64,000 bases of DNA from a phage: sequence record PZ445498.1; one strand, 5' to 3'. Below, piece after piece: positions 3,153 to 30,043 of the stretch. A program made the position numbers and the translations under genes. Within the stretch, counting starts at the first letter, position 1, and every line of letters begins with the position of its first letter. The notes under the pieces were generated by a model. The model was not told the origin of the DNA, ran no database searches, and saw nothing but the letters and a program-made list of their open reading frames with translations.

Positions 3153-3264
3153 CACGCGCCCGTGTACGCGATATAAAATGATTATCTAGTACCATACATC
3201 TCCCAATAAAAGCAAGCAAATTTTTTATTTAAATGCAATATCATAGGCTTATTTAAAATTGTAG

Positions 3265-3293
3265 TTGCTTTCTCCCGTATATATTGGTATAAT
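3265..3293 (+). promoter_or_regulatory. early promoter (ttgctt-17-tataat), upstream of phoH
   Basis: Conserved hexamers, 17-bp spacer. Confidence 0.6.
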
Positions 3294-3366
3294 ATATTTG
3301 TAAGTTGATAAACAAGATCTTTTTGTTGATCCTCTGTTAGCGAAGTACACTATAGGAGTGTTATTT

Positions 3367-14272: not shown

Positions 14273-14914
14273 ATGATGACTACTCGTATCTCTAAAACTC
14301 GTGCTCTGGCAACTATCAAGTCTCTGGAATCTAAAATCCGTAAAGCTACTGAACAACAGCTTTTGATTGCTGTTGGTGAAGGTAAAGACAAGAATCAAGT
14401 TGTCGTTGGTGCTGCAATCGAAGTAGATGCTCTGTCTACTCGTATTAAAACTGATTTCCAGTCTCTGCTGGATATGATGACCCAGCGTGATCAGCTGAAA
14501 GCAGCGCTGATCAAGAGCAATGCTGAAACTGTTGTAGAGATCGGTTCCCGCTCTATGACTGTTGCGGAAGCAATCGAAGCTAAGCGTTCTATGGAACTCA
14601 AAGCTCAGTTGCTGGCTAACATGCGTAAGCAGTTCCATGCTGCTACTGTTAAGTTTAACACTCAGAAGGCTCAGTTTGATGCCAAGTATGAGCGTTTGCA
14701 GGATACCATGGCTACCCGCGACAAGAAGACTTCCGAGGATGAAGTTAAGATGCAGCTTAACCTGCTGGAACTCAAGAACACTCCATTCCTGATCGATCCG
14801 CTGGAGCTGGAAAAGCTGATCAAGCAACACGACGAAGAATACCAGGACTTTGCAACCAACGTTGACTTTGTTCTGTCTGAGTCCAACGCCTCTACTTTTA
14901 TCGAAGTAGAGTAA
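14273..14914 (+). CDS. hypothetical coiled-coil protein
   Basis: Start moved to the MMTTR ATG pair after aaggaag RBS; host-like codon usage. Confidence 0.6.
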   Translation: MMTTRISKTRALATIKSLESKIRKATEQQLLIAVGEGKDKNQVVVGAAIEVDALSTRIKTDFQSLLDMMTQRDQLKAALIKSNAETVVEIGSRSMTVAEAIEAKRSMELKAQLLANMRKQFHAATVKFNTQKAQFDAKYERLQDTMATRDKKTSEDEVKMQLNLLELKNTPFLIDPLELEKLIKQHDEEYQDFATNVDFVLSESNASTFIEVE

Positions 14915-15300
14915 TAATTTAAAAGACTAGTAAATCGGTAGACGAAAGCCCAAGCATCTTACCTCGCAGCAGCGGTTGAAATACGAGGTTAAATAAGACC
15001 GCTGACCATACTATAAAGTATAATCTATTGGAGATTATGTTTATTACACCAGCCTCTTAAGCTGAACTGTAAAAACGGTCGTTGGTAGTACCAACACAAC
15101 TTCAAAGATCAACGCTCAAGTATGAAAGCTGAAAAGTTAAAAGCACTCAAACTTCTAACCTTCTAAAGCTAAAAGATGCAAAGTATTCGTTGATGATTCA
15201 AACCCTAGATCAAAGGTACATGGCTCATAAGATATGGCCTGTGGCGCCTCTAGGCTGTTTATCGGTTTACTAGTCTCTCAATTTAAAAATGTATTTGCTA
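14915..15300 (+). ncRNA. ORF-free element closed by a 10-bp inverted repeat
   Basis: gactagtaaa near 14918 pairs with tttactagtc near 15281; no ORF; precedes promoter 15295-15323. Confidence 0.25.
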
Positions 15301-15323
15301 ATTAGTTTAGTTTTCTATATAAT
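15295..15323 (+). promoter_or_regulatory. early promoter
   Basis: ttgcta-17-tataat. Confidence 0.65.
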
Positions 15324-15353
15324 ATATTTTTAAATTGATGAGACGAGGCTATT

Positions 15354-15671
15354 ATGATTTTTCATATTCTAATTGATGATGTTCGTGACCTACATGGGAT
15401 GGATATTATCATTCGAACCCCCGAAGCCGCTATTGAGTTTCTGAATACAACCGATACCACCGGACATTTCGTTTATATGGATAACGATCTGGCTGTAGAT
15501 GGTATGGAAGGTTATCAAATTCTTCGTTTACTCCTAAAATTTGGTCAGAGACCCAAGAAAGTGGTACTAGTAACCTCGAACCCAGTAGCTAAAGAGACCA
15601 TGCGTAATGATCTCTTAGACGAAGGGTATCAAGAAAGCCCTAATCGTATTGAGTACGATTGGCCGGAGTAA
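15354..15671 (+). CDS. CheY-like receiver-domain protein (putative)
   Basis: 105 aa; ILIDDV...VYMDNDL...VVLVTSNP pattern resembles a receiver fold; motif-level only. Confidence 0.35.
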   Translation: MIFHILIDDVRDLHGMDIIIRTPEAAIEFLNTTDTTGHFVYMDNDLAVDGMEGYQILRLLLKFGQRPKKVVLVTSNPVAKETMRNDLLDEGYQESPNRIEYDWPE

Positions 15672-18393: not shown

Positions 18394-18468
18394 CGGGGTG
18401 TAGTCTAAGGGATAGGCAGGAGTCTTCTAAATTCCTTTATGCAGGTTCGAATCCTGTCACCTCGGCCA
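18394..18468 (+). tRNA. tRNA-Arg (anticodon UCU)
   Basis: Acceptor cggggtg/cacctcg, anticodon loop cttctaa, T-arm gcagg-ttcgaat-cctgt, CCA encoded. Confidence 0.75.
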
Positions 18469-18501
18469 ACTTTAATAACTGTAACTAAACAAAGGAAATA
18501 T

Positions 18502-19446
18502 ATGTTTACTAAAAACACTAAAGAACTAACTTCTGAGCAAAAAGTAATTCGTACTATTAAACGTTGGGGTGTTGGTGCTGCTGTTGGTCTTGGTGCTCTT
18601 ATTCTGGCTCTCAATTCCTATACAGTTGTTCAGGATGGTACTGTTAAGACCCAAACCTTCCTGGGTAAAGTTAGCCCTAATCCTGTATTGCCAGGCTTCC
18701 ATATTGTTAACCCATTTGCTTCTTTTGATACTTTTAGTACGAAAGATATTTCCATGAAACTGGATAAACTTCAGGTGCCTAGCCAGGATAAGTTTAAGTC
18801 TACTGTTGACATTACCGTTATGTTGCAGTTTGATGGTGCTAAAGCTCCTATGAACCGTGTTAACGCAGGTACTCAGGATCAAGCTCTGAACAAGTACGTT
18901 GAAGAGAAGATGCTGTCTACGATTCGTGAGTTTGGTAAGTCTGTACCAAAAGCACAAGATCTGTTCGACGCTAAGATTCAGGCTCAACTGCAAACCGCTA
19001 TTCAGCAAGAAGTAGAAGAGTACGCGCGTCCTTATGGCTACACCGTTAAGCAAGTATTCCTTCAGGATATTACTCTGCCACCGGTAATCATGGAACAGGT
19101 ACAGAACACTAAAGTTCGTGAAGAACAAGTTAACGCTGCAAAAGCTGAACTAGCTCGTGTTGAACAAGAAGCACAGCAGAAAGTTAAGCAAGCTGAAGCT
19201 GATCGTTCTGCTCGTGAAAATATGGCAGTAGCTAACGAACGTGACGCAGATGCTAAACTGTACGCAGCTAAGAAAGAAGCTGAAGCTAACGCCGCTCTGC
19301 AACGTACCATTACTCCTGAAATGATTCGTTGGAAGCAGCTGGAAGTTGAAATGCTTCGTGCTGAAAAATACCAAGGTGGTGTACCGCAGACTGTTGTTGG
19401 TACTGGCTACGATGGTCAAATGATCATGGATATGCGTAACAAGTAA
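18502..19446 (+). CDS. SPFH/band-7 (prohibitin/HflK-like) membrane protein
   Basis: N-terminal TM helix then SPFH-like region and a long Ala/Glu/Lys coiled coil; start at ATG 18502 after aaggaaa. Confidence 0.6.
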   Translation: MFTKNTKELTSEQKVIRTIKRWGVGAAVGLGALILALNSYTVVQDGTVKTQTFLGKVSPNPVLPGFHIVNPFASFDTFSTKDISMKLDKLQVPSQDKFKSTVDITVMLQFDGAKAPMNRVNAGTQDQALNKYVEEKMLSTIREFGKSVPKAQDLFDAKIQAQLQTAIQQEVEEYARPYGYTVKQVFLQDITLPPVIMEQVQNTKVREEQVNAAKAELARVEQEAQQKVKQAEADRSARENMAVANERDADAKLYAAKKEAEANAALQRTITPEMIRWKQLEVEMLRAEKYQGGVPQTVVGTGYDGQMIMDMRNK

Positions 19447-19470
19447 TAGTTACACGTAATCTTCGAACCA

Positions 19471-19508
19471 AGCCCGCGTTCCCTCCGAGAGCGCGGGCTT
19501 TTCTGTAT
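19471..19508 (+). terminator. rho-independent terminator after the SPFH gene
   Basis: agcccgcg ... cgcgggct followed by ttttctg. Confidence 0.75.
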
Positions 19509-19650
19509 TTAAGGCAAAAGAAAAGCCCATAAGTTATTCAACTAAGGTCTTTAGTATTTAATTCTTTAGAATCGCATACTATTGTTGCTGCAACAACGTG
19601 CTACCATTAAATGCCCTGAGATTTTTCCACTAAAAAGTTTAAAAATTCGT

Positions 19651-19679
19651 TTGCTTGAATGCTAAATTCTCTGTATAAT
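19651..19679 (+). promoter_or_regulatory. early promoter upstream of the NadR-like gene
   Basis: ttgctt-17-tataat plus leader. Confidence 0.65.
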
Positions 19680-19709
19680 ATATTTATAAATTTGAGAGAG
19701 GAATCAAAC

Positions 19710-20765
19710 ATGATTAAGACTGGTCTAGTAATTGGTAAGTTCGCACCCTTAACGCGTGGCCATATTAACCTAATAAATACAGCAGCAACTATGTGTGAAC
19801 GAGTTATTATTGTAGTTAGTCATGATAATCGTTGGCTGGATAAGCAGAACACACGTGATCAGGAAGTATTACAGTTAAAGAATCGTCTTCGTTGGTTAGA
19901 ACAAACTTACGCGGATATTGAGCACGTTTCGGTAGAGTATATTATTGAAGATGATATTCCTGAATATCCGAATGGTTGGCCGGAATATGCTAGAATCCTT
20001 AATGAAAATTACGGACATTTACCTGAGATCACCATTTTCTCTAGCGAACTAGACTATGATGCAGAATATAAGAAATATCTGCCGAAGTTTGGTCATTATA
20101 TTGTAGATTCTGATCGGACTCGTGTTCCAATCTCAGCTACAATGATTCGTAATGATCTTATGAAGTATTGGGAGTTTCTTCCTAGCGTAGTTCGTAAAGA
20201 TTACGTGCGTAGGGTTGTAATCATTGGGACTGAAAGCTCAGGAAAGACTACTTTAACAAAATACCTTGCGAAGCTATACAACACTTCGTGGGTAGAAGAA
20301 TATGGTCGAACGTATTGTGAAGTTGATCTAGTTGGTAACGAAAATCTGCTTACCAGCGAAGATTATAGTAAAATTGCGTTCAGACACAAAGAGCTAGAGT
20401 TTGAGGCAGAACGTACTGCAAATAAGATCATGTTTGTGGATACAAATGCTTTTATTACTGAGTTCTACCACAGACTTTATGAACATCGTAAGAACCCTGT
20501 GGTTACAGCAATTGCAAAAGAAGAACATTACGATTTAGTAATTGTTCTAGCGCCCACTGTCAAGTGGGTAGATGATGGTTTACGTATTAACTCCGATCGT
20601 TCAATTACTTCTGAACTGTTCGAGCAGATGAAGAAAGAATTTCCAAATCAGTTCCCTGAAGGGCGTACTGTGTACATCGACTCCCCGGACTACAAAGTTC
20701 GTATGGACGAAGCAGTAAACGCAGTAGACTGGCTGATTCATCACTTTAACGTTGGAGAGTTTTAA
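19710..20765 (+). CDS. NadR-like bifunctional NMN adenylyltransferase / ribosylnicotinamide kinase
   Basis: N-terminal GKFAPLTRGH nucleotidyltransferase motif; C-terminal P-loop VVIIGTESSGKTTLTKYLA; no HTH domain. Confidence 0.7.
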   Translation: MIKTGLVIGKFAPLTRGHINLINTAATMCERVIIVVSHDNRWLDKQNTRDQEVLQLKNRLRWLEQTYADIEHVSVEYIIEDDIPEYPNGWPEYARILNENYGHLPEITIFSSELDYDAEYKKYLPKFGHYIVDSDRTRVPISATMIRNDLMKYWEFLPSVVRKDYVRRVVIIGTESSGKTTLTKYLAKLYNTSWVEEYGRTYCEVDLVGNENLLTSEDYSKIAFRHKELEFEAERTANKIMFVDTNAFITEFYHRLYEHRKNPVVTAIAKEEHYDLVIVLAPTVKWVDDGLRINSDRSITSELFEQMKKEFPNQFPEGRTVYIDSPDYKVRMDEAVNAVDWLIHHFNVGEF

Positions 20766-20766
20766 T

Positions 20767-21444
20767 ATGACTAACTATCTCGTAAATGACTTTAAAAACT
20801 GGAAACCTCTGGAATATCTGTGGCTGTTCATAGCGGTTGCCTTCATTAGTTTAGCTAACTATAATGGTACACCTCTAGATTGGGCTACTGCGATAACCAA
20901 CGTAGTTTGTGTTATTTTGGTTGCTAAAGGACGTGTTTCTAACTATATTTGGGGCTTAGTTGGTGTTCTTACCTATGGTATTACAGCTTTAAACGCAGAT
21001 CTTTATGGTAACGCTGCACTAAACCTGCTATACTACGTTCCTATGCAGTTTTATGGAATGTACTTATGGCATAAAAATAAGCCAAGTAATCTGCCAGATG
21101 TTCCAACTAAGATTCTGACTAAAGTCCAAGCTCTGCTGACTCTAGGGATTCTAGCAGTAGCCACGTTAGGGTATGGTAGTTTCTTAGCTACTACGGCTGA
21201 TCCATTCCCAATGTTGGATGCATTTACTGCGGTAGGTAGTGTGATCGCTATGTGGCTTATGGTTAAGCAGTATGCCGAGCAGTGGCTGATCTGGATTGCT
21301 ATTAACATTGGTACTGTGTACATTTGGCTTGTAACTACTCAATCTACAGGTGCATCTTATGCAATCCTAGCAATGTGGCTAGTATTCTTAGGTAACTCTA
21401 TTATGGGAGCCTATAAAGGATACTTTGTACGCGTTAACAAATAA
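20767..21444 (+). CDS. pnuC: PnuC-like nicotinamide riboside transporter
   Basis: Multi-pass membrane protein with ...YGMYLWHKNK... and ...WLIWIAINIGTVYIWLV; coupled to the NadR-like gene. Confidence 0.7.
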   Translation: MTNYLVNDFKNWKPLEYLWLFIAVAFISLANYNGTPLDWATAITNVVCVILVAKGRVSNYIWGLVGVLTYGITALNADLYGNAALNLLYYVPMQFYGMYLWHKNKPSNLPDVPTKILTKVQALLTLGILAVATLGYGSFLATTADPFPMLDAFTAVGSVIAMWLMVKQYAEQWLIWIAINIGTVYIWLVTTQSTGASYAILAMWLVFLGNSIMGAYKGYFVRVNK

Positions 21445-21491
21445 AGTAGTTATAGCCCTCTAAGCGAGGGCTATTATACAGAAATTTTCAC

Positions 21492-21520
21492 TTGCTTAAT
21501 ATAGAAAATTTCTATATAAT
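21492..21520 (+). promoter_or_regulatory. early promoter
   Basis: ttgctt-17-tataat. Confidence 0.65.
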
Positions 21521-21550
21521 ATATTTATAAATTCGAGAGAGGAATCAAAC

Positions 21551-21847
21551 ATGAAACGCATTGTACTTGCACTGACTCTAGTATCTACTTCTGTATTTGC
21601 TGCTCCGCAACAGGAACTTTGTCAAGTTCAGGTTTGTAATAAGTTAGAACGATTTACTTTGGATATTTGGTCACACATTAAAGATAATATGGGTGAACAG
21701 TGTTTTGATATTGTTCTGCCAAAAGAGCAGGCTGTTCCTGGTGCTATTCTTAGCTCAGAGTCACGTTGGTGGCAGGGTTCTTCTATCAATCCAACTAAGA
21801 AGTCAGTGACACGTATCAAACAAGTATATCAGTGCAAGGTTCAGTAA
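21551..21847 (+). CDS. hypothetical secreted protein
   Basis: Signal peptide MKRIVLALTLVSTSVFAAP. Confidence 0.5.
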   Translation: MKRIVLALTLVSTSVFAAPQQELCQVQVCNKLERFTLDIWSHIKDNMGEQCFDIVLPKEQAVPGAILSSESRWWQGSSINPTKKSVTRIKQVYQCKVQ

Positions 21848-21855
21848 AATTTCAC

Positions 21856-21884
21856 TTGCTTAATGTCGAAATTTTCTGTATAAT
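21856..21884 (+). promoter_or_regulatory. early promoter
   Basis: ttgctt-17-tataat. Confidence 0.65.
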
Positions 21885-21917
21885 ATATTCATAAATTCGG
21901 AAGATTAGGAACTATTT

Positions 21918-22427
21918 ATGCTAGACTATGAGTCTATACTTTATAGATTCCGTTTAGAAGATGGTGTGCTGGTGTGGAATCCGCTCTCCGGAAACTCCAG
22001 AGAGGAGAAGATATTTAATACTAAGTTTGCCAATAAACCTGCGGGATCTTTGCACAAAAGCTCTGGGTATATCAGAGTTAACGTTGATCACCAAGATTAC
22101 TTAGCTCATATCATAGTATTTATACTATATTATGGGTATAGGCCGGAAATGATTGATCATAAAGACTGCAATAAGTTAAACATACATCCTTTAAATTTAA
22201 GAGCAGCGGATAGTACCACTAATACTCATAATGCTAGTAAATCTTCTAGGAATACTAGCGGATTTAAGGGAGTATCCTACCACAAAGCATCTGGTCAGTG
22301 GCAGGGTAGAATAATGTTTAAAGGTAAGTCATACTCCGCAGGGCTGCACAGTACTCCTGAAGCAGCAAATGAAGCTCTAATTCAACTGAGAGAGAAACTT
22401 CATGGGGAATACGCCCGAAATAATTAA
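21918..22427 (+). CDS. HNH homing endonuclease
   Basis: IDHKDCNKLNIHPLNLRAA HNH core; stop abuts tRNA-Ser. Confidence 0.7.
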   Translation: MLDYESILYRFRLEDGVLVWNPLSGNSREEKIFNTKFANKPAGSLHKSSGYIRVNVDHQDYLAHIIVFILYYGYRPEMIDHKDCNKLNIHPLNLRAADSTTNTHNASKSSRNTSGFKGVSYHKASGQWQGRIMFKGKSYSAGLHSTPEAANEALIQLREKLHGEYARNN

Positions 22428-22516
22428 GGAAGAATAGCATAACGGTATTGCAGCAGATTGCTAATCTGTCGGTTTGAAACATAGCCTTGTGGGTTCGAAT
22501 CCCACTTCTTCCTCCA
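22428..22516 (+). tRNA. tRNA-Ser (anticodon GCU)
   Basis: Acceptor ggaagaa/ttcttcc, loop ttgctaa, long variable arm, T-arm gtggg-ttcgaat-cccac, CCA. Confidence 0.75.
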
Positions 22517-22521
22517 AATTT

Positions 22522-22599
22522 GGTTCTCAAGCTCATTTGGTATGAGCCGTCGCCTCATAAGCGAAAGGTAGGTAGGTTCGAATCCTCCGGGAGCCACCA
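22522..22599 (+). tRNA. tRNA with CAU anticodon (Met, fMet or Ile2)
   Basis: Acceptor ggttctc/gggagcc with G-U pairs, loop ctcataa, T-loop ttcgaat, CCA. Confidence 0.65.
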
Positions 22600-22616
22600 A
22601 TTAACTAGGAGACTAT

Positions 22617-22802
22617 ATGTCTAAGTTTCAAGAGCTTAAACAAGAACTAGAAGAGTGCATGTGTACTCACTGCCAAGGAACAGGTACTATTAATGATGCT
22701 GAACCTGGCGATATGCGTTTTGAAGAGTGGGAATGCGCAGCATGTAATGGTTCTGGTATTAATCCAGAATTTGGAATTTCTCTAGATATTGATCGAGGTT
22801 AA
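22617..22802 (+). CDS. small Cys-rich zinc-finger protein (DnaJ-like CxxCxGxG repeats)
   Basis: CTHCQGTG ... CAACNGSG. Confidence 0.5.
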   Translation: MSKFQELKQELEECMCTHCQGTGTINDAEPGDMRFEEWECAACNGSGINPEFGISLDIDRG

Positions 22803-23136
22803 CATGGATATTTACACTACTCCAGCAGTAAATCTGATTGGCTCTTGCCTTGTGCATTTCCGCTTCTTCCAAACGGATGATAGCAAAGAGGAATATACTT
22901 ATCCTCTGATGGATTTTCAGATTGAGGATTTCTTTCGTGAAGTTCGTAATATTTCTGGAAACTTCTTCTATGGTATGGATAAGGAAGATTTTGACATTGA
23001 GTTCCCTATAATCTCTCGTTATTTCCTAGAACAGTCTGACGCTCATTTTAGTAAGATTGAGCATATGGAAGTAGCATGGGCAATTCAGTTCGAGATTACT
23101 GGTTTTGCTCGATATATTCAGGGTTACGAACTCTAA
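22789..23136 (+). CDS. hypothetical protein
   Basis: 115-aa ORF. Confidence 0.5.
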   Translation: MIEVNMDIYTTPAVNLIGSCLVHFRFFQTDDSKEEYTYPLMDFQIEDFFREVRNISGNFFYGMDKEDFDIEFPIISRYFLEQSDAHFSKIEHMEVAWAIQFEITGFARYIQGYEL

Positions 23137-23145
23137 AGATTACAT

Positions 23146-23222
23146 GGGGGTGTAATCGAATTGGCATAGGTACTGGACTTAAAATTCAGGTTTTGTGGGT
23201 TCGAATCCCACCACCCCTACCA
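23146..23222 (+). tRNA. tRNA, anticodon UAA predicted (Leu?), atypically short variable arm
   Basis: Acceptor gggggtg/cacccct, anticodon stem ctgga/ttcag with loop cttaaaa, T-arm gtggg-ttcgaat-cccac, CCA. Confidence 0.55.
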
Positions 23223-23373
23223 AATTAAGGAAATAAAATGAAAGCTATTAAGAAAGCACTACGTAAATTTATGTACTGTCGTTTTCATAGCATCAAGACT
23301 TCAACTAATGGTACGACTTATGATCGCTATGATCCTAAGTTTGGCTTACATTCTAAATAACTGGAGAAAACAA

Positions 23374-23580
23374 ATGGCTAATCCTGAAATTACGGCACAA
23401 CGCTTTATGCTGAAAGGAATTATTGCTGAAGCAGGCATGACAGAAGAAGTTACAGATTTTCAAAAGCAATTCCTCAATATTCTCACTCAAGCTAAAGAGC
23501 TAGGAGAGAAGGAACATGGCGCGGCTATTATGGCAATCACGTTGGTTGGGCTTGATCTGGCTGAAGAATCAGGAGTTTAA
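23374..23580 (+). CDS. hypothetical protein
   Basis: Start at MANPEIT after ggagaaaacaa. Confidence 0.45.
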   Translation: MANPEITAQRFMLKGIIAEAGMTEEVTDFQKQFLNILTQAKELGEKEHGAAIMAITLVGLDLAEESGV

Positions 23581-23610
23581 CTCCTCCAAGCAGAAATTTT
23601 AAAAATGTAC

Positions 23611-23640
23611 TTGCTTTTTACTTAAGATTTCTGTTATAAT
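23611..23640 (+). promoter_or_regulatory. early promoter
   Basis: ttgctt-18-tataat. Confidence 0.6.
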
Positions 23641-23670
23641 AGTTATATAAATTGATGAAGGAGTTAACGA

Positions 23671-23946
23671 ATGCAAAATCGTGTTATAACAACTGGTATT
23701 GAAAGTGCAATCTGTAAATCCTGGGAAGGCTGGGAAGGTGAGATTGAATGGCTTTATTTCTATGATGTAGAACTTCTGCCGGAAATTAAAGCTAAATGTG
23801 TTGAAGCTGGCATGGCTCCAGATGCTACGGCTGATGTTGAGATTAGCATGAATAAGTTAGAGGGTCGGGTAATCACTGTTAGTGATGAGGGTGAAGAAGT
23901 TTTTGAACTTCCGTTCTCCTTAACTGTCACTCCTAAGTTCGACTAA
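23671..23946 (+). CDS. hypothetical acidic protein
   Basis: 91 aa, promoter 23611-23640 upstream. Confidence 0.5.
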   Translation: MQNRVITTGIESAICKSWEGWEGEIEWLYFYDVELLPEIKAKCVEAGMAPDATADVEISMNKLEGRVITVSDEGEEVFELPFSLTVTPKFD

Positions 23947-23982
23947 CTGATACAGCACTGAGCAAGTTCTTTAAAGTTTGAC

Positions 23983-24012
23983 TTGCTCAAGTGCCTTAAA
24001 ACTTGATATAAT
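23983..24012 (+). promoter_or_regulatory. early promoter upstream of a tRNA block
   Basis: ttgctc-18-tataat. Confidence 0.55.
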
Positions 24013-24136
24013 ATTTATCTAATTTGGAAACATATCTGAATGAGAAGTAATTAAGCGAGTTGCTTTTAGGGGTAAAGTCAGGAAATCCTGAAATATTCCA
24101 CCTTGAGTTTAACCGACTTACTTTTCATTCAAATAT

Positions 24137-24217
24137 GGGGGATTGGCTCAGTGGCGACGGCGCCTGGCTGTAGACCGGGTATATCACGCGGAGGTTCGAG
24201 TCCTCCATCCCCCACCA
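24137..24217 (+). tRNA. tRNA-Tyr (anticodon GUA) probable
   Basis: Acceptor gggggat/atccccc, stem cctgg/ccggg with loop ctgtaga, extended variable region, T-arm ggagg-ttcgagt-cctcc, CCA. Confidence 0.55.
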
Positions 24218-24225
24218 AATTTAAT

Positions 24226-24300
24226 GCACCTATCGTCTAATGGTTAGGACATCAGGATTTCAATCTGAGAATCGGAGTTCAATTCTCCGTGGGTGTGCCA
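24226..24300 (+). tRNA. tRNA-Glu (anticodon UUC)
   Basis: Acceptor gcaccta/tgggtgt, D-arm gtctaatggttaggac, loop atttcaa, T-arm cggag-ttcaatt-ctccg, CCA. Confidence 0.7.
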
Positions 24301-24309
24301 ATTAATAAT

Positions 24310-24380
24310 TGGGGTACGCATAGGTTGCTAGTGGGCCTCCAAAACCCATGAAAAGGTTTCGAATACCTTTACCCCTGCCA
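24310..24380 (+). tRNA. tRNA, anticodon CCA (Trp) possible
   Basis: T-arm aaggt-ttcgaat-acctt, acceptor 3' tacccct, CCA; short D-arm, 1-72 mismatch; anticodon assignment uncertain. Confidence 0.45.
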
Positions 24381-24386
24381 ATATTT

Positions 24387-24461
24387 GCACCTTTAGCTGA
24401 GATGGATTAGCGCTTGCCTGAAGAGCTTGAGAGGTTCGTTCAATTCGAACAGGGTGCACCA
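24387..24461 (+). tRNA. tRNA-Phe (anticodon GAA)
   Basis: Acceptor gcacctt/agggtgc, D-stem gctg/tagc, loop ctgaaga, T-arm gttcg-ttcaatt-cgaac, CCA. Confidence 0.65.
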
Positions 24462-24478
24462 ATTTGAAGGAGATGCTG

Positions 24479-24751
24479 ATGCATCCTGAAAACTTCTTTA
24501 TATACTGTACTAGTCTTTTGCTTAAACGCCGGATTAATAAAGTATATCACTACAGAGCTAGTCAACAGCCTTATGTTTATGATTCTAGTGGAGATCATAT
24601 TCCACTTGAGCAACTAGGGACTGATTATATGGTTTTGAAGCACTTTAATGAGGCGAATATCTCTAGCGTTCATAACCGACAAAACTCTAAAACGTGGTGG
24701 CATAAGAAGCGTAAGAAAGGCATCAAATTTCTTAAAAATGTAGTTGCTTAA
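24479..24751 (+). CDS. hypothetical protein
   Basis: Start moved to the ATG after aaggag (track TTG start overlaps the tRNA-Phe 3' end). Confidence 0.45.
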   Translation: MHPENFFIYCTSLLLKRRINKVYHYRASQQPYVYDSSGDHIPLEQLGTDYMVLKHFNEANISSVHNRQNSKTWWHKKRKKGIKFLKNVVA

Positions 24752-24772
24752 ATCCTTAAAGTTCTGTATAAT
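24744..24772 (+). promoter_or_regulatory. early promoter
   Basis: ttgctt-17-tataat. Confidence 0.6.
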
Positions 24773-24800
24773 TATTACATAAATTGAACTGGAGAACTAG

Positions 24801-24989
24801 ATGAAAGCACCTAAACCGAAATTAGTTAAGTTCGACTGCTGTGATACTGAAATCTTATTTACTAAGTTTGGTGAATTTAAGATGTGTGAATGTGGAACAT
24901 GTGGTTACGATCATGGTGATGGATATTATTGCAGAACCCTAGGGCCTTCTGAACTAATCCACTTCTCATGGCCGGAAAGTAAAGAATAA
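24801..24989 (+). CDS. small Cys-rich zinc-ribbon protein
   Basis: CCDTE...CECGTCGYDHGDGYYC. Confidence 0.5.
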   Translation: MKAPKPKLVKFDCCDTEILFTKFGEFKMCECGTCGYDHGDGYYCRTLGPSELIHFSWPESKE

Positions 24990-24991
24990 TA

Positions 24992-25067
24992 CGACCGTTG
25001 GCTGAATGGCTTAGGCGGAGGCCTGCAAAACCTCCTTATGTGAGTTCGAATCTCATGCGGTCGTCCA
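24992..25067 (+). tRNA. tRNA-Cys (anticodon GCA)
   Basis: Acceptor cgaccgt/gcggtcg, loop ctgcaaa, T-arm gtgag-ttcgaat-ctcat, CCA. Confidence 0.7.
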
Positions 25068-25074
25068 AATTTTA

Positions 25075-25157
25075 GGGTCGTTAGCCAAGCGGTTTGGCGG
25101 GGGACTGTTAATCCATGTCGAAAGACAACGTAGGTTCGAATCCTACACGGCCCGCCA
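25075..25157 (+). tRNA. tRNA, anticodon GUU (Asn) possible, enlarged variable region
   Basis: Acceptor gggtcgt/acggccc, D-arm gcc-aagcggttt-ggc, T-arm gtagg-ttcgaat-cctac, CCA; anticodon stem poorly paired. Confidence 0.5.
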
Positions 25158-25184
25158 ATTTCATTAACAACTGAGGAAATAGAT

Positions 25185-25370
25185 ATGACAACTCGTGCAA
25201 TTGCTCGACTAGAAGCTGATCGTGATAATCTGATTAATAATATTAAGGTTCGTGATAATATTATTAAGGCTCTGAAAGCTGAACTTCTTGAAGAACTTCA
25301 AGGTCAAGTAGAGCGTCGTGAAGCTCTAAAAGAGGTTGAGGAAGCTATCGAAAAACTCAAGGCTGAATAA
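25185..25370 (+). CDS. hypothetical coiled-coil protein
   Basis: 61 aa. Confidence 0.45.
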   Translation: MTTRAIARLEADRDNLINNIKVRDNIIKALKAELLEELQGQVERREALKEVEEAIEKLKAE

Positions 25371-25373
25371 ATT

Positions 25374-25955
25374 ATGCACGGAATATCCTTACCCATTCCA
25401 GGGTTTGAGGAGTACTTAGTAAGTTTGGATGGGTTAGTATTTAGTATCAAATCAAACAAAATACTAACCCCAATAACCAGTAATTACGGATACTTATCTA
25501 TACGTCTCCATAAAAATGGTCAACAGAGAAATACCGGTGTACATAGGATTTTAGCATGTGCATTTAAGAAATTACCAAGTCTAGACTCTGAACTAGAAGT
25601 TGACCATATTAACACAGACATTACTTATTGGGGTCTTAATAACTTACAAGTGCTCACAAAAGAGCAGCATCTAGAAAAGACTTTAAAAGACAAAGGATTT
25701 AGTAAACTAAACCATGATAATTGTTGTAAGGATTGTGGTAAAGCTATTTCTTTAAAAGCTGAAAAATGTCAGGAGTGCTCTTCATATAAACCAAAAGATA
25801 TCTCTATAACTAAAGAAATAATCGAGGTTACAGTAAGAGAGCTAGGCTGGTCAGGTGCAGGGAGAAAGTTAAGTTATTCAGATAATGGGTTGCGTAAAAG
25901 ATACACTTCTTTAGGAGGCAATCCTAAAGAACTTAAAAAGTTAAAGGTACTATAG
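25374..25955 (+). CDS. HNH homing endonuclease with C-terminal Cys-rich region
   Basis: ELEVDHINTD..NLQVLTKEQH HNH core and CCKDCGK...CQECSS; its 3' end overlaps the first 10 nt of tRNA-Asp. Confidence 0.7.
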   Translation: MHGISLPIPGFEEYLVSLDGLVFSIKSNKILTPITSNYGYLSIRLHKNGQQRNTGVHRILACAFKKLPSLDSELEVDHINTDITYWGLNNLQVLTKEQHLEKTLKDKGFSKLNHDNCCKDCGKAISLKAEKCQECSSYKPKDISITKEIIEVTVRELGWSGAGRKLSYSDNGLRKRYTSLGGNPKELKKLKVL

Positions 25956-26020
25956 TCTAACGGTTAGGATACTCCCCTGTCACGGGAGAGGTAGGGTTTC
26001 GATTACCCTTAGTACCGCCA
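25946..26020 (+). tRNA. tRNA-Asp (anticodon GUC)
   Basis: Acceptor ggtacta/tagtacc, anticodon stem ctccc/gggag with loop ctgtcac, T-arm agggt-ttcgatt-accct, CCA. Confidence 0.85.
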
Positions 26021-26026
26021 AATTAT

Positions 26027-26103
26027 ACATCCATAGCTCAATTGGTTAGAGCTACCGCCTCTTAAGCGGTAGGTTCTAGGTTCAAGTCCTAGTGGGTGTA
26101 CCA
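26027..26103 (+). tRNA. tRNA-Lys (anticodon CUU)
   Basis: Acceptor acatcca/tgggtgt, D-arm gctcaattggttagagc, stem accgc/gcggt with loop ctcttaa, CCA. Confidence 0.75.
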
Positions 26104-26316
26104 AACATCAGAGCAGCGTGATGTACTGCAAAGACCCAAAGTCCGGGGTGGACTTCTTGATTCAAAGGAGCAGGCATTAATTATCATTCTAGCGTGGTGG
26201 AGAGGGGACACCAGCTTGCCGAGGGTAGAAGCTCGTTCGATTCGAGTGAAAGAATGGTTCTCGTAAATCCGCACAAGTGATAGTAGGTTCAAGTCCTACC
26301 TAGATTGACTCATTAT

Positions 26317-26390
26317 GCGTTCGTAGTTAAAAGGTATAATTTTTGGTTGCCAACCAGAAGTTGAGGGTTCGATTCCCTCCGACCGCACCA
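26317..26390 (+). tRNA. tRNA-Gly (anticodon GCC)
   Basis: Acceptor gcgttcg/cgaccgc, loop ttgccaa, T-arm gaggg-ttcgatt-ccctc, CCA. Confidence 0.7.
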
Positions 26391-26645
26391 AATCTTTGTA
26401 GGTCGCGTCACTTATAATGGGACTACAGGGTAAACAAGGCGATGAGTTTCCGGCCGGTTCTAGTCGCTGAAAATCCTCCCGACCAGGTAGGTGTAGGTAA
26501 ACGAAAGTTTACTTATTGAGTAGGTTCCGATAGATCGGCGAGTCTATTCTGGCATTTAAGAGAAGTCTCGCAAACTTCTTTGTCAGCCGTGGGGCTTGAA
26601 CCCTCCAGGTGGCCTACGCAATAAGTAAATTTATTAAAAATTCAT

Positions 26646-26674
26646 TTGCTATTTTGCTTAATTCTCTGTATAAT
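26646..26674 (+). promoter_or_regulatory. early promoter
   Basis: ttgcta-17-tataat. Confidence 0.65.
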
Positions 26675-26706
26675 ATATCTTATAAAGTGTTGAGAAGGAA
26701 AGCAAA

Positions 26707-26904
26707 ATGAAAAAAGTTATGTTACTATCTGTATTCTTACTCACTGGTTGCTTTAAATTTGATTCAACCATTAACAAGGAGTATGAATTTGCAAAAAATT
26801 TCTGTGGTGGAGAGAGTAAAATACAAAACTTCAGTATACACTCTACAATTCCTAGTACCATTTACTGCGTAGATGGACGGAATATTAATATTCCACCACA
26901 ATAA
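26707..26904 (+). CDS. small lipoprotein
   Basis: MKKVMLLSVFLLTGC lipobox. Confidence 0.5.
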   Translation: MKKVMLLSVFLLTGCFKFDSTINKEYEFAKNFCGGESKIQNFSIHSTIPSTIYCVDGRNINIPPQ

Positions 26905-26913
26905 AAGAATATT

Positions 26914-26990
26914 CTCCGATTAGCTCAATTGGCTAGAGTACACCGTTTGGGGCGGTGGGGTTGAAGGTTCGAGTCCTTCATTGGAGACCA
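26914..26990 (+). tRNA. tRNA-Pro (anticodon UGG)
   Basis: Acceptor ctccgat/attggag, stem caccg/cggtg with loop tttgggg, T-arm gaagg-ttcgagt-ccttc, CCA. Confidence 0.85.
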
Positions 26991-26996
26991 AACAAT

Positions 26997-27074
26997 TGCG
27001 GGTTAGATCTTTGGTAGAGATCGCTAGTCTCATAAGCTAGAAAGAGGTAGGTTCGATTCCTACACCCGCTTCCA
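26997..27074 (+). tRNA. tRNA with CAU anticodon (Met, fMet or Ile2); 1-72 mismatch
   Basis: D-stem gatc/gatc, stem ctagt/gctag with loop ctcataa, T-arm gtagg-ttcgatt-cctac, CCA. Confidence 0.65.
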
Positions 27075-27095
27075 ATTTAATAGAAGGATTTCGAA

Positions 27096-27260
27096 ATGAA
27101 ATTATTTCGTTTAAAGGTAAGTGATCTACGATCTAGCAAAGATCGTAAGAAGTATCCACTAGCCCATTACGGTAAAGATAAAAACGAAGTGATGGCGGAA
27201 TTAGGAATCAATCATCCTTACTTGAAAGTCTACTCTATTAAGGAAGTCTATGCTAATTAA
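27096..27260 (+). CDS. hypothetical small protein (54 aa, below the ORF-track cutoff)
   Basis: ATG at 27096 after aagga; MKLFRLKVSDLRSSKDRKKYPLAHYGKDKNEVMAELGINHPYLKVYSIKEVYAN. Confidence 0.4.
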   Translation: MKLFRLKVSDLRSSKDRKKYPLAHYGKDKNEVMAELGINHPYLKVYSIKEVYAN

Positions 27261-27723
27261 TAAAGTTTTAGCTGCCTTAAACCTTCCTGATAACTTCATT
27301 ATAGATGATAAGCTCATAAGAGCTTATATGAGCAAATATAACGAAATTTCGGGTAAAGAAGGTAAGTTAAAAACTTCAGAGTTTAGATTCTGTTATCGAA
27401 TGGCAGCCTTAAATCTCTTAAAGTATAAAAGGGAGCATAAAATACCTATAACGGAAGGTTTTGTATATGTAATTGGTAATCCAGCATGGCCAGGCATGTA
27501 TAAAATAGGTATGACTATAGATGTGAATGAGAGGTTAGCAAGTTATCAAACTTATTCACCTAATAGAGACTACAAGCTATACCATTTCAGATTTTCGTCG
27601 GATAAAAGACGTACAGAGAAAGAATTACATAATCTTCTTAAAGATTATAGAGTATCTGGAGAGTGGTTTGAAGTACCTGTACTAGATGCTTTTAAATTAT
27701 TAGTAGAAAAATTGGATTGCTAG
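27250..27723 (+). CDS. T5orf172 / GIY-YIG-like domain protein
   Basis: GFVYVIGNPAWPGMYKIGMTIDVNERL...GEWF matches the pattern I recall for the T5orf172 family; 3' end overlaps the following tRNA by about 10 nt. Confidence 0.55.
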   Translation: MLINKVLAALNLPDNFIIDDKLIRAYMSKYNEISGKEGKLKTSEFRFCYRMAALNLLKYKREHKIPITEGFVYVIGNPAWPGMYKIGMTIDVNERLASYQTYSPNRDYKLYHFRFSSDKRRTEKELHNLLKDYRVSGEWFEVPVLDAFKLLVEKLDC

Positions 27724-27791
27724 CTCAACTGGATAAGAGTAGCGGACCTTTAATCCGTCAGTTCTGGGTTCGAATCCCAGGCAATCCACCA
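27714..27791 (+). tRNA. tRNA-Lys (anticodon UUU) probable; C at position 33
   Basis: Acceptor ggattgc/gcaatcc, stem gcgga/tccgt with loop cctttaa, T-arm ctggg-ttcgaat-cccag, CCA. Confidence 0.6.
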
Positions 27792-27795
27792 AATT

Positions 27796-27869
27796 GCTCG
27801 GTTAGTTTAATGGTAGAACCCCGTCTTTACACGGCGGTTGCGATAGTTCGATTCTATCACCGAGTACCA
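27796..27869 (+). tRNA. tRNA-Val (anticodon UAC)
   Basis: Acceptor gctcggt/accgagt, stem ccgtc/ggcgg with loop tttacac, T-arm gatag-ttcgatt-ctatc, CCA. Confidence 0.75.
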
Positions 27870-27894
27870 ATTAACTCAAAATAAGGAATTGCAA

Positions 27895-28249
27895 ATGCAA
27901 TTATCAAGCAAGGTTCAAGGCTATTTCGGTCATGTAACAATGGAGTTCGCTATCTCTTAAAGGTTGGGACTTCGAACAAGATCTAGCTGAATTCTACAAA
28001 GATATTGATCTGAACGTACCATACATAGGACTCTCCACTGGTCAAGAGATTACAGAAGCCGATGTATTCAAGGCAAGTCAAGGTGAGGTAACACCTAGTT
28101 TTGCCGAGTTCTGGTTAGGTATCACACTGAAAGAAGATGCACCGGATGGTGGTGTGGTTATGCAGAGTATGCACTCTGGAAGCTCTGATTACCTTTTCGT
28201 TAGCGACGTTAAGGAACTACAAGAAATCGCTAAAAATGTACTTGCTTGA
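27895..28249 (+). pseudogene. frameshift-interrupted gene (21-codon ATG frame then 95-codon +1 frame)
   Basis: RBS taaggaa and ATG 27895 open a frame that stops at 27958-27960; the +1 frame is open from 27938 to 28249 and has no start codon of its own. Confidence 0.35.
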
Positions 28250-28270
28250 TGCTTAATTTCTTGTTATAAT
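28242..28270 (+). promoter_or_regulatory. early promoter
   Basis: ttgctt-17-tataat; overlaps the 3' end of the frameshifted gene. Confidence 0.6.
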
Positions 28271-28625
28271 ATTTATATAAATTGATGTGAAAATAGCTGC
28301 CTAGATATCAGGTGTATGACGTCTACACTAGCAGAGCTACCGAAAAAGAGATCCTCAGGATAAACGCCGTAGCAAAATTAGTCTGATATCCATCAATTTA
28401 GTTCACTAAGGTATTAGCTCGACCTAGGACTGGCTGCCAAAAAGCACAGTTGCAATTAGACCCCCTAATGGCGGGGGATGCTTTGCAATAAGTTCTAGAT
28501 TAGTCCACTAGATTCAGCGGCTACTGAATAGTGTATTGGGTTTGCGAGATGACGCGGTTCCTTCCGCTCGAAGCGAAGGTGCTGTAGTTACGCCGAGCTA
28601 ATAGCCTTAGTAAACTAAAGAATTT

Positions 28626-28700
28626 GGGCGGTTAGTTTATCTGGGAAAATACCTGACTTGCACTCAGGAGTGAGGAGTTCGACTCTCCTACTGTCCACCA
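28626..28700 (+). tRNA. tRNA-Ala (anticodon UGC)
   Basis: Acceptor gggcggt/actgtcc with G-U pairs, stem cctga/tcagg with loop cttgcac, T-arm aggag-ttcgact-ctcct, CCA. Confidence 0.75.
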
Positions 28701-28705
28701 AATTC

Positions 28706-28790
28706 GGGGCTATGCTGGAACTGGTAGACAATACGGCCTTAGATTCCGTAGCTTAAATGCGTGGGAGTTCGAGTCTCCCTAGCCCCACCA
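28706..28790 (+). tRNA. tRNA-Leu (anticodon UAG), type II
   Basis: Acceptor ggggcta/tagcccc, loop cttagat, long variable arm, T-arm gggag-ttcgagt-ctccc, CCA. Confidence 0.75.
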
Positions 28791-28806
28791 ACTTATAGGA
28801 TAATGT

Positions 28807-29391
28807 ATGCAGTTTGTACCAATAAAAGATGCACCAGGGTATTTAGTAAATGAAACAGGGGATGTGTTATCTACATTTACTAATAAAATTTTATCAAGAT
28901 ATATAGTTGATGGATACCCTGCTGTAAAATTACAGATAAATGGTAAGCAAACTTCGGTACTTATACACCGAATTATTTCCCATGTATTTGGGGACTTATA
29001 TAATCTATTTGATCCTGAATTAGAAGTAGATCACAAGGATAGAGATAGGCTGAATCTATCTAAAGATAATCTTCAAGTTTTATCAAAAATAGAACATCAG
29101 AAGAAAACTAATAAAGATAATGGATGGTCTGATAGTAGAGTACCTTGCCCCTTATGTGGAAATCTAATGCTTCAGAGATCAGTAACATGTACAAATTGTA
29201 AGCCAAAACCTACAGGAAAGTTAATAAAACCAGAATTGTCCTTAGAAGACATAACTGAAAAGGTTTTATTAATGGGGTGGGTTAAGGCAGCTAAAGATCT
29301 AGAAGTATCAGAGTCCACTTTACGTAGACGATATACTAAACTAACCGGATTAAGCCCAAAAGTATTAACAGAACAACGGAAAAGCAAATAG
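28807..29391 (+). CDS. HNH homing endonuclease with C-terminal Cys-rich region
   Basis: Paralogue of ORF 25374 (ELEVDHKDRD..NLQVLSKIEH; CPLCGN...CTNC); 3' end overlaps tRNA-Ser by 14 nt. Confidence 0.7.
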   Translation: MQFVPIKDAPGYLVNETGDVLSTFTNKILSRYIVDGYPAVKLQINGKQTSVLIHRIISHVFGDLYNLFDPELEVDHKDRDRLNLSKDNLQVLSKIEHQKKTNKDNGWSDSRVPCPLCGNLMLQRSVTCTNCKPKPTGKLIKPELSLEDITEKVLLMGWVKAAKDLEVSESTLRRRYTKLTGLSPKVLTEQRKSK

Positions 29392-29471
29392 ACTGGTGAC
29401 TAAACCCGATTGGAAATCGGTTGAGGGGTAGCAATACCGCCTTATGGGTTCAACTCCCATCTTTTCCGCCA
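29378..29471 (+). tRNA. tRNA-Ser (anticodon GGA), type II
   Basis: Acceptor ggaaaag/cttttcc, loop ttggaaa, long variable arm, T-arm atggg-ttcaact-cccat, CCA. Confidence 0.6.
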
Positions 29472-29483
29472 AACAATTTATAT

Positions 29484-29578
29484 GGTAGGTCAATCCAATG
29501 GCTGGCGCTGGACTCCGACTTGAAATCGGTTGATCGTAGTGATACGGTGTAAGGGTTCGATCCCCTTACCTACCTCCA
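29484..29578 (+). tRNA. tRNA-Ser (anticodon UGA), type II
   Basis: Acceptor ggtaggt/acctacc, loop cttgaaa, long variable arm, T-arm aaggg-ttcgatc-ccctt, CCA. Confidence 0.65.
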
Positions 29579-29959: not shown

Positions 29960-30036
29960 GTGGCTATATCATAATTGGTTAATGATCCTGATTGTGAATC
30001 AGGCCTATGTGGATTCGAATTCTACTAGCCACCCCC
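29960..30036 (+). tRNA. tRNA-His (anticodon GUG)
   Basis: Acceptor gtggcta/tagccac, stem cctga/tcagg with loop ttgtgaa, T-arm gtgga-ttcgaat-tctac; 3' end reads cccca. Confidence 0.75.
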
Positions 30037-30043
30037 AAATATA

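Follow-up and report, generated by a model that had tools for sequence, protein, structure and literature searches.

Large RNAs of intricate structure are rare in bacteria and their phages: transfer-messenger RNA (tmRNA), ribonuclease P (RNase P) RNA, 6S, OLE, GOLLD, ROOL and raiA have each opened a new field or posed a lasting puzzle. The transfer RNA (tRNA) gene clusters of phages T4 and T5 also encode small stable RNAs, presumably released by tRNA-processing enzymes. Here we analyse a 64,000-nucleotide (nt) stretch of phage DNA from sequence record PZ445498.1 (the whole stretch is called the window below), in which a 353-nt element at 14924-15276 on the + strand, single-copy and free of open reading frames (ORFs), appears to specify a structured RNA. 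Like the T4 species 1 and 2 RNAs and T5 rna2, RNAIV and RNA2H (AY692264), it is non-coding and co-oriented among phage tRNA genes, but those RNAs are ~100-170 nt long and lineage-specific, whereas the present one measures 250-410 nt, occurs in many phage families and some bacteria, and is tied to a protein gene. The window comes from a T5-like Salmonella phage of the genus Epseptimavirus; over 14900-15360 its sequence matches phage HMD-P2 of Salmonella with 100% identity and T5 with 93%. We have hardly any doubt that the RNA family exists, is read from the + strand and has the helices, heptad array and protein linkage described below. We give about an even chance to the fuller reading that 14924-15276 is the gene for a previously undescribed class of ~350-nt structured non-coding RNA, co-transcribed with a gene of the T5.085 family and forming a ribonucleoprotein (RNP).

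The locus had drawn attention through an inverted repeat. A preliminary description reported complementary 10-mers closing an ORF-free segment between a gene stop and the next promoter, and offered two readings, structured RNA and miniature inverted-repeat element. The 10-mers are real but were misplaced: GACTAGTAAA lies at 14925-14934, not near 14918, and TTTACTAGTC at 15266-15275, not near 15281. The perfect repeat is in fact 11 base pairs (bp) long (AGACTAGTAAA at 14924-14934 pairing with TTTACTAGTCT at 15266-15276); by our own estimate ~0.02-0.05 such 11-mers are expected by chance in ~390 nt, which makes it mildly unlikely, and 11-mers with one mismatch are not rare in the window. The segment is indeed without an ORF of at least 30 amino acids on either strand between 14915 and 15353, and it does lie between a stop codon ending at 14914 and a promoter at 15295-15323. 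Its only small ORFs, four of 22-27 amino acids with TTG or ATG starts, are unconserved; no conserved tag ORF was found, and stop codons occur in all frames. In the three T5 records, the corresponding 363 bp carry no annotation.

The repeat is the outer end of a longer helix, P1, with 19 contiguous pairs between 14924-14942 and 15258-15276 when G-U is allowed. Its three wobbles are G-U on the + strand and would be A-C on the - strand. The + strand has a folding energy of -100.8 kcal/mol (z = -4.55), equalled by 0 of 100 shuffled sequences, and the - strand likewise folds better than shuffled (z = -5.16). The sequence of P1 differs by lineage while its pairing stays, from AAGCUAG.../...CUAGUUU in T5 to AAGGUAGUUCUGU/AUAGAGCUACCUU in Pectobacterium phage My1. 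From 5′ to 3′, the partner gene and the parts of the RNA are:

14276-14914, + strand: partner protein gene (T5.085 family, phrog_1491, 212 amino acids), directly upstream of the element
14924-14942, + strand: 5′ strand of P1, AGACUAGUAAAUCGGUAGA, holding the left repeat and pairing with 15258-15276; 10 of 10 tested pairs covary across 26 lineages
14943-14949, + strand: junction CGAAAGC (family consensus YGAAAAC), directly 3′ of P1 in nearly all lineages and invariant in 30 T5-like sequences
14956-14961, + strand: AUCUUA, which may form the 5′ half of a distant tertiary contact, PK-L, by pairing with the loop 15228-15233
14961-15004, + strand: H-type pseudoknot, found at this position in each of the 24 + 32 lineages examined, its sequence unrelated from one to another
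14961-14966 with 14984-14989, + strand: pseudoknot helix H1, ACCUCG with CGAGGU
14970-14977 with 14997-15004, + strand: pseudoknot helix H2, CAGCGGUU with GACCGCUG
14990-14996, + strand: A-rich pseudoknot loop 3, UAAAUAA
15005-15008, + strand: ACCA, a tail resembling a discriminator plus CCA, directly after H2 and invariant in T5-like sequences
15009-15097, + strand: variable region with three hairpins (15020-15038, 15050-15064 and 15081-15095), the least conserved part
15098-15203, + strand: heptad array of ~12 repeats with consensus U-Y-A-A-A-R-N, ending in UUCAAACC
15204-15257, + strand: 3′ domain, matched by covariance model R1, its helix Py recovered by RNAalifold
15204-15209 with 15249-15254, + strand: helix Py, CCUAGA with UCUAGG, enclosing hairpin Pz
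15222-15225 with 15236-15239, + strand: hairpin Pz, GGCU with GGCC, loop CAUAAGAUAU
15255-15257, + strand: invariant CUG after Py
15258-15276, + strand: 3′ strand of P1, UUUAUCGGUUUACUAGUCU, holding the right repeat and pairing with 14924-14942

All features that define the family are present in the window: P1 with YGAAAAC and GGCUG, the pseudoknot, the heptads, AAAUCC followed by Py and Pz, and the position after the phrog_1491 gene. Across the family, ~10-20 nt separate the YGAAAAC junction from the pseudoknot, and the 3′ landmarks run (GAU)AAAAUCC, Py enclosing Pz, GGCUG and the 3′ strand of P1.

Comparison between lineages argues strongly for these helices. We built by hand alignment A4, which covers 26 lineages and has blocks for H1, H2, Py and the 10 bp of P1 that border the junctions. 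Its cells are 98.9% paired, against 52.4% in shuffled alignments and 34-45% when the 3′ partner is slid by 1-3 columns, a percentage that is partly built in for H1, H2 and Py through their placement by complementarity. Both sides have changed in 27 of the 30 pairs (318 cells), including 14 of the 15 pairs of H1 and H2, and the covariation score of 1.04 (0.21 when shuffled) was reached by 0 of 500 shuffles. When P1 strands are placed solely by the conserved junction motifs, cognate strands form 9.88 of 10 pairs and non-cognate strands 4.76 ± 2.06. Py, with covariation, was recovered by RNAalifold from a structure-blind MAFFT alignment of the 3′ domains. A covariance model, R1, built from 20 distant lineages and excluding the T5-like, My1, DU_PP_V and Av-05 sequences, matches held-out loci at the expected position; searched against both strands of the 64-kilobase window with E up to 10, it gives a single match, at 15194-15267 (+) with 22.8 bits and E 0.006. 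The stem at 15050-15064 shows a compensatory change between the window and T5. Folding and covariation analysis, the check named in the preliminary description, extends the helix, places both it and the folding energy well beyond chance and finds the pairing kept across lineages.

The strand follows from the wobble pairs. Across lineages, P1 has 35 G-U cells against a single A-C cell, which assigns the RNA to the + strand, the one that also encodes the genes on either side and the window's 26 tRNAs. This asymmetry and the fixed orientation of the locus rule out a small RNA from the - strand, a candidate raised by a putative - strand promoter in the T5 record and a terminator-like hairpin at 15096-15080 (-).

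As a measure of sequence constraint, we counted what share of sites varies among 30 distinct T5-like sequences. The junction has 0%, P1 5%, the heptad array 9%, the pseudoknot 11%, the 3′ domain 11% and the variable hairpins 20%. The upstream gene has 27% over all sites and 59% at third codon positions, and the downstream gene 69%. The element, its unpaired array included, is therefore more constrained than the neighbouring coding sequence.

The same architecture recurs far beyond the T5-like phages, in which the element occupies the same site in 437 of 450 matching records. My1 and DU_PP_V, Pectobacterium phages of a different subfamily, carry, behind the same gene, a copy that has diverged but can still be aligned, with a different gene downstream; here an internal helix, CAGCGGU/ACCGCUG, which is half of the H-type pseudoknot, has become UAGCCAC/GUGGCUA. 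A search of viral contigs for the upstream protein returned 79 loci, and every divergent locus among them has a 250-410-nt ORF-poor stretch of the same layout after the gene. In all, the architecture is seen in T5-like phages, My1, DU_PP_V, Vibrio phage JSF10, Av-05 and ~50 IMG/VR lineages, with hosts that are both Gram-negative and Gram-positive; an L with a number denotes a single locus below. R1 also finds the module in a prophage-like region of Clostridium botulinum (E 9e-10) and, among ordinary cellular genes, in the chromosome of Paenibacillus xylaniclasticus (L210, BLWM01000013.1; E 1e-4), where P1 reads GAUGCCAAUACUC|CGAAAUC ... GGCUG|GAGUGUUGGCAUC and no tRNA is nearby. The genes around L210 (GntR, DUF5808, GyrI-like, lipase) do not look prophage-like. 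A 61-amino-acid "gene" is called at L210 4663-4848, wholly inside the RNA element, and is therefore probably a false gene call.

The RNA is tied to one protein. In 99 of 99 loci examined, distant phages and the Paenibacillus chromosome among them, the element lies directly after the T5.085 homologue in a fixed orientation. It always starts 5-110 nt past the stop codon on the same strand. This gene is the sole one common to all 99 loci; no other conserved neighbour was found among them, PhoH being present in 13 of 99. For the reverse comparison, viral contigs were scanned for an RNA motif (TCGATAAAATCC, 38-54 nt, GGCTG), giving 120 loci, 42 of which have the protein gene upstream. Two of the remaining 78 pass a structure test (P1 10/10, Py 5/5), and both are cut off upstream; the other loci without the gene failed the test, consistent with chance pattern matches. 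Every structure-validated match with enough upstream sequence has the protein gene.

In the Paenibacillus locus, the gap between gene and RNA has no terminator and a 15-bp intrinsic terminator follows P1 directly, which in this analysis is the best evidence for a single + strand transcription unit comprising gene and RNA. In many lineages, a short GC-rich terminator-like hairpin followed by U residues stands between the gene and P1 (L003 5735-5760, L085 3140-3165, L060 3107-3122, and just past the stop codon in L058, L066 and L082). Such a hairpin might instead be an attenuator that sets the ratio of protein to RNA, or a processing or stability element.

The partner family is large, with 3,602 clusters at 50% identity, 1,723 of them with E below 1e-30. 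AlphaFold2 predicts an elongated helical bundle with a small beta sheet (predicted local distance difference test, pLDDT, 91), and the sheet carries the conserved residues SN..T.V, MTVAEAI and NVDFVLSESNA. The protein matches no Pfam, NCBIfam or PADLOC family; the only relative found was PDB 3kdq, which itself gives no function. The GenBank and PHROG label "tail fiber protein" for the T5.085 family (also My1_080) is unsupported, the gene being encoded in the early/tRNA region, and is very likely a propagated mis-annotation. In the T5 record AY692264, an opposite-strand ORF, T5p083, is annotated over the partner gene instead.

The RNA itself matches no family in Rfam. Rfam 15 (4,227 models, including GOLLD, ROOL, Y RNA/YrlA, 6S, RNase P and self-cleaving ribozymes), at gathering thresholds, returned only tRNAs from the window and 20 related loci, and cmscan of 14700-15500 with E up to 10 gave just two spurious microRNA matches. 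ARAGORN found 26 tRNAs and no tmRNA in the window, and no description of this RNA was found in the literature searched.

The units of the heptad array in the window include UCAAAGA, UCAACGC, UGAAAGC and UUAAAAG. Taking A-runs as a proxy for repeat number in the last 105 nt before Py, we count 9-14 per element in 24 lineages, and successive U[CUG]A[AG] motifs are exactly 7 nt apart in 114 of 192 intervals. In the high-GC lineage L047 the units read UCAGGAC/UGAGGAC; the composition of the heptads thus drifts with GC content and no single codon is conserved. A possible 7-bp helix around most of the array, AUCAACG 15108-15114 with CGUUGAU 15188-15194, has a weaker equivalent in My1 and is not evident in distant lineages. 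Pairings of UUCG with CGAA, and of a U-rich break in the array with AAAGG, were noted by eye; they are inconsistent across lineages and we do not claim them.

A further long-range contact, PK-L, probably connects the 5′ junction to the Pz loop. This loop (UAAGAU, 15228-15233 in the window) is complementary to the 6-9 nt that immediately precede H1 (AUCUUA, 14956-14961), and the strands change in step: AUCUUG/CAAGAU in Av-05, and UUACGC/GCGUAA, UAAACA/UGUUUA, TTAAATCA/TGATTTAA, UUAAAUCA/UGAUUUAA and UAUUAUUGU/ACAAUAAUG in other lineages. We treat this pairing as inferred because the contrast between cognate (5.88) and non-cognate (4.62 ± 1.13) strands is modest. An alternative junction partner, the first 14 nt inside Py, pairs no better than non-cognate controls and was rejected.

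The fold is a compact pseudoknotted core. P1 joins both ends of the RNA, with the H-type pseudoknot at the 5′ junction and Py/Pz at the 3′ junction, and the two domains are probably tied by loop-to-junction pairing. This core presents a ~100-nt single-stranded array of 9-14 heptads. Tentatively, and with slightly less than even confidence, we propose that the array is a multivalent platform for the co-encoded elongated helical protein, the two making up an RNP that the structured core may nucleate or cap, protecting the RNA.

The phage modules sit among co-oriented tRNA genes, and several features suggest that tRNA enzymes might process the RNA. In Av-05 a tRNA starts 3 nt after P1, and in several other lineages 17-33 nt after it; where a tRNA abuts P1, RNase P would set the 3′ end of the RNA. 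The variable region seems to collect tRNA-derived modules: L036 carries a complete, functional-looking tRNA-Thr-like gene there (3229-3302, 65 bits), and L048, L060 and L061 (~3200-3240) have an anticodon-like hairpin and a T-arm-like GGUUCGAAUCC hairpin. The RNA of L036 must therefore be cut, and its pieces can be held together only through P1 and tertiary pairing. In the window, the hairpin 15050-15064 (CAGC-CUCUUAA-GCUG) resembles the anticodon arm of a tRNA-Lys(CUU) that the phage itself encodes (26027-26103): the 7-nt loop is the same and 11 nt are identical (GCCTCTTAAGC), a match with a chance of ~0.2 by our own estimate; T5 has CAGA-CAUUUAA-UCUG at the same place. The hairpin could be a mimic of the tRNA-Lys anticodon arm or a tRNA remnant.

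The pseudoknot also recalls a tRNA. H1 and H2 add up to 11.5 ± 1.5 bp (mode 12), and the acceptor/T arm has 12 bp. Following H2, NCCA or a purine plus CCA stands in about one third of lineages, after unrelated stem sequences. In lineages with NCCA, neighbouring tRNA genes encode CCA in 50 of 52 cases, against 15 of 37 (11 in one locus) and, in a second set, 13 of 73 in lineages without it; in the window, 25 of the 26 tRNA genes (18394-31603, all + strand) have an encoded 3′ CCA. The pattern of viral tRNA-like structures, a pseudoknot of ~12 stacked bp plus NCCA, is thus seen in the window (ACCA 15005-15008) and in about a third of lineages, not in the rest, and a universal NCCA is refuted by these. 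The third pair of H2 is G-C, G-C, A-U, U-A or C-G depending on the lineage, and no conserved synthetase identity pair, G3:U70 included, was found in the H2 stems read across lineages. We therefore see the pseudoknot as a possible acceptor-arm-like module for processing or for defining a 3′ end, not as evidence of aminoacylation, and hold this view with some reserve. With similar caution, we suggest that the enzymes that process tRNAs could also mature the phage RNA. An abutting downstream tRNA would be the site of RNase P cleavage, the pseudoknot with NCCA would be an acceptor-arm-like 3′-processing site, and a break in the variable region would be tolerated, leaving two pieces held by P1.

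A related explanation makes the tRNAs or translation the target of the RNA. With a logic like that of tmRNA, it would act as a sponge for tRNAs, deliver them or protect them, for example against anticodon nucleases. The pseudoknot with NCCA would mimic an acceptor arm and be matured, perhaps CCA-repaired or charged, while the heptads, as U-[Y/G]AA-A (codons of Gln, Glu, Lys or ochre type flanked by the complements of U33 and A37), would engage anticodon loops or the ribosome. The location inside phage tRNA clusters, the appearance of NCCA after H2 in independent lineages and its correlation with tRNA-encoded CCA, the acceptor-arm length of H1 plus H2, and the tRNA-derived inserts in L036, in L048, L060 and L061 and at 15050-15064 would all fit. 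However, ARAGORN and Rfam give no tmRNA, tRNA or RNase P match on the element, H2 has no conserved identity pair and the RNA no conserved tag ORF, NCCA is missing in most lineages, no single heptad codon is conserved, and the Paenibacillus chromosome copy has no nearby tRNA. We judge this explanation unlikely; it overlaps with the RNP reading and does not exclude it.

Somewhat less likely still, the array could be a decoy that soaks up a defence nuclease or a host factor with affinity for single-stranded RNA, with the protein as an accessory only. Nine to fourteen conserved unpaired repeats on a stable scaffold do resemble the logic of CsrB/RsmZ, the unpaired array is under strong purifying selection, and the phages are virulent, with the element in their early/tRNA region. 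Yet with Gram-negative and Gram-positive hosts the target of such a sponge would have to be nearly universal, and a role directed only at the host is hard to square with the copy in a bacterial chromosome. Strict two-way linkage is better explained if the protein is the ligand. Neither protein matches the PADLOC library of anti-phage defence, a library without phage counter-defence genes.

The constant position of the element, 5-110 nt past the stop codon on the same strand, and the terminator shared by gene and RNA in L210 would equally be expected of a cis-acting 3′ untranslated region of the T5.085 mRNA, a message stabiliser or autoregulatory operator with no function in trans. We consider this improbable: 300-400 nt with at least 4 covarying helices, pseudoknots and a 100-nt array exceed the needs of any known 3′ stabiliser, terminator-like hairpins often intervene between gene and RNA, and embedded or abutting tRNAs imply that the RNA is cut from the mRNA.

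A reading at the level of DNA is very improbable, be it a cruciform, a signal for replication or packaging, or a spacer with a chance palindrome. That both strands fold better than shuffled is expected of any set of inverted repeats, but the pairing is strand-specific in the manner of RNA, with its excess of G-U over A-C, pseudoknots and conserved unpaired heptads are unexpected for a cruciform, and the orientation to the upstream gene never varies. Least likely of all, a miniature inverted-repeat transposable element (MITE) or other mobile DNA bounded by terminal inverted repeats is suggested by the 11-bp perfect repeat around an ORF-free segment and by AATTTAAAA on both flanks, but is ruled out by copy number and synteny: there is one copy in the window, no presence/absence polymorphism among T5-like records, the locus is syntenic in all lineages, the repeats change in sequence with pairing kept and with G-U asymmetry, and the A/T-rich 9-mer on the right flank is part of a recurrent promoter consensus. 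A search for further copies, as the preliminary description had suggested, found none: blastn of 14900-15360 against the window recovers only the promoter part, 15271-15348. Of the two options in that description, structured RNA is borne out by compensatory changes and covarying helices, and mobile DNA is not.

Returning to an RNP-forming RNA matured with the help of tRNA enzymes, several points weigh against it. Its expression, ends and processing are deduced from sequence, and the partner protein is without a recognisable RNA-binding domain. In My1 and DU_PP_V, a terminator-like hairpin between gene and RNA complicates simple co-transcription. H1, H2 and Py were located by complementarity search, with independent controls for P1 and Py and not for H1 and H2. 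NCCA is absent in most lineages; its correlation with tRNA-encoded CCA has exceptions (L034, L105 and L167/L177) and is confounded with phylogeny, and H1 is no shorter where H2 is longer (r = 0.01). As for novelty, the 10,006 candidate viral structured RNAs of PMC10690425 may already include part of the family without a name.

A more specific picture, which we offer as speculation with a low probability, is that the RNA is a subunit of a widespread RNP in which two pieces are clamped by pseudoknots, the pseudoknot is matured by tRNA machinery, and a protein-coated array acts on translation or the tRNA system. It might, for example, capture or shield s2U34-type tRNAs (Lys/Gln/Glu) or ribosomes during infection.

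If this more specific picture is correct, T5 has carried an RNA machine on the scale of tmRNA unnoticed. RNA and protein occur together in phages of both Gram-negative and Gram-positive bacteria as well as in at least one chromosome of a bacterium, and the repeat array suggests a defined biochemical activity, multivalent binding. If tRNA-type processing holds, the family would add a DNA-phage case of acceptor-arm mimicry by a pseudoknot. As the RNA is present in the classical model phage T5, genetics is immediately possible, and the region of the element in T5 borders a deletable tRNA segment. Database annotation is corrected as well: the "tail fiber protein" label of the partner gene is probably wrong, and the 61-amino-acid Paenibacillus gene and the opposite-strand ORF in AY692264 are probably spurious calls.

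Beyond the 3′ strand of P1 lie a promoter and the next gene:

15295-15323: T5-type promoter (TTGCTA, 17 nt, TATAAT), serving the next gene
15354-15671: downstream gene, 105 amino acids, cREC_REC, the next gene after the promoter

The promoter belongs to a module of ~60-75 nt (an A-rich upstream part, TTGCTA, 17 nt, TATAAT and TTTTTAAATTGA) that occurs at 15271-15348 and at ~20 other window sites (for example 26634-26695, 43706-43767 and 23598-23658); the promoter at 15278-15338 is enclosed by an 18-bp inverted repeat made up of the two A/T-rich halves of the module. The downstream protein consists of a cREC_REC domain standing alone (PF20274, cyclic-phosphate-processing receiver), a domain that typically occurs in RNA-repair neighbourhoods with RtcB. 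The protein of vB_EcoS_Ace is just 57% identical although the upstream RNA is 95% identical, which suggests mosaicism; RN29 and R2 have it as the C-terminal portion of a 273-amino-acid ORF labelled HNH endonuclease. The cREC_REC gene was rejected as a linked partner of the RNA, the link being absent outside T5-like phages and the gene located elsewhere in My1.

Among described systems, GOLLD and ROOL are likewise large and highly structured, often borne by prophages or phages beside tRNA genes, and sometimes have an embedded tRNA. They are RNA-only assemblies (bioRxiv 10.1101/2024.12.08.627333). The present RNA has no Rfam match, is smaller and has other conserved motifs, together with heptads and an obligatory partner gene. 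Type III toxin-antitoxin RNAs were considered and rejected: their tandem repeats are ~30-40 nt long and lie upstream of an endoribonuclease toxin gene, whereas those here are 7 nt long and downstream of the gene, and the partner is a helical bundle, not Kid/ToxN-like, without a PADLOC match.

For the array, the nearest parallels are the protein-sponge RNAs CsrB/RsmZ and the targets of the ring proteins TRAP (5-nt period) and HutP (7-nt period), in which many short purine-rich motifs stand at fixed spacing, a likeness that suggests multivalent protein binding. Here, however, the motif is UYAAARN within an unpaired stretch, where those sponges have GGA in hairpin loops, the array is held in a pseudoknotted clamp, and the candidate ligand is a helical bundle. 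For the pseudoknot, the parallel is the tRNA-like structure of the turnip yellow mosaic virus (TYMV) type, with a pseudoknotted acceptor arm of ~12 stacked bp followed by discriminator and CCA. The motif here is internal, with 270 more nt of the element after it, CCA is present in only ~1/3 of lineages, and anticodon or T-arm mimics are not found at fixed positions.

The closest comparison overall is with tmRNA (SsrA, with SmpB), especially its two-piece or permuted forms. Membership is rejected, every defining test having failed: there is no ARAGORN or Rfam match, no G3:U70 and no tag frame. The ends also lack a canonical acceptor/T-arm domain, the partner is a helical bundle and not an SmpB fold, and the heptad array takes the place of PK2-PK4. 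What the two share is layout, and the resemblance is one of layout only: a closing helix and a pseudoknot stand upstream of an unpaired A-rich segment in both. At 300-400 nt, the RNA has a long helix joining its 5′ and 3′ regions, a GCGAAAC-like junction closely followed by an H-type pseudoknot whose loop 3 is A-rich, a scaffold displaying the A-rich segment and, in some lineages, a CCA-ending tRNA-like feature. Like tmRNA, which is itself sometimes phage-encoded, it may consist of two base-paired pieces and has a small protein dedicated to it.

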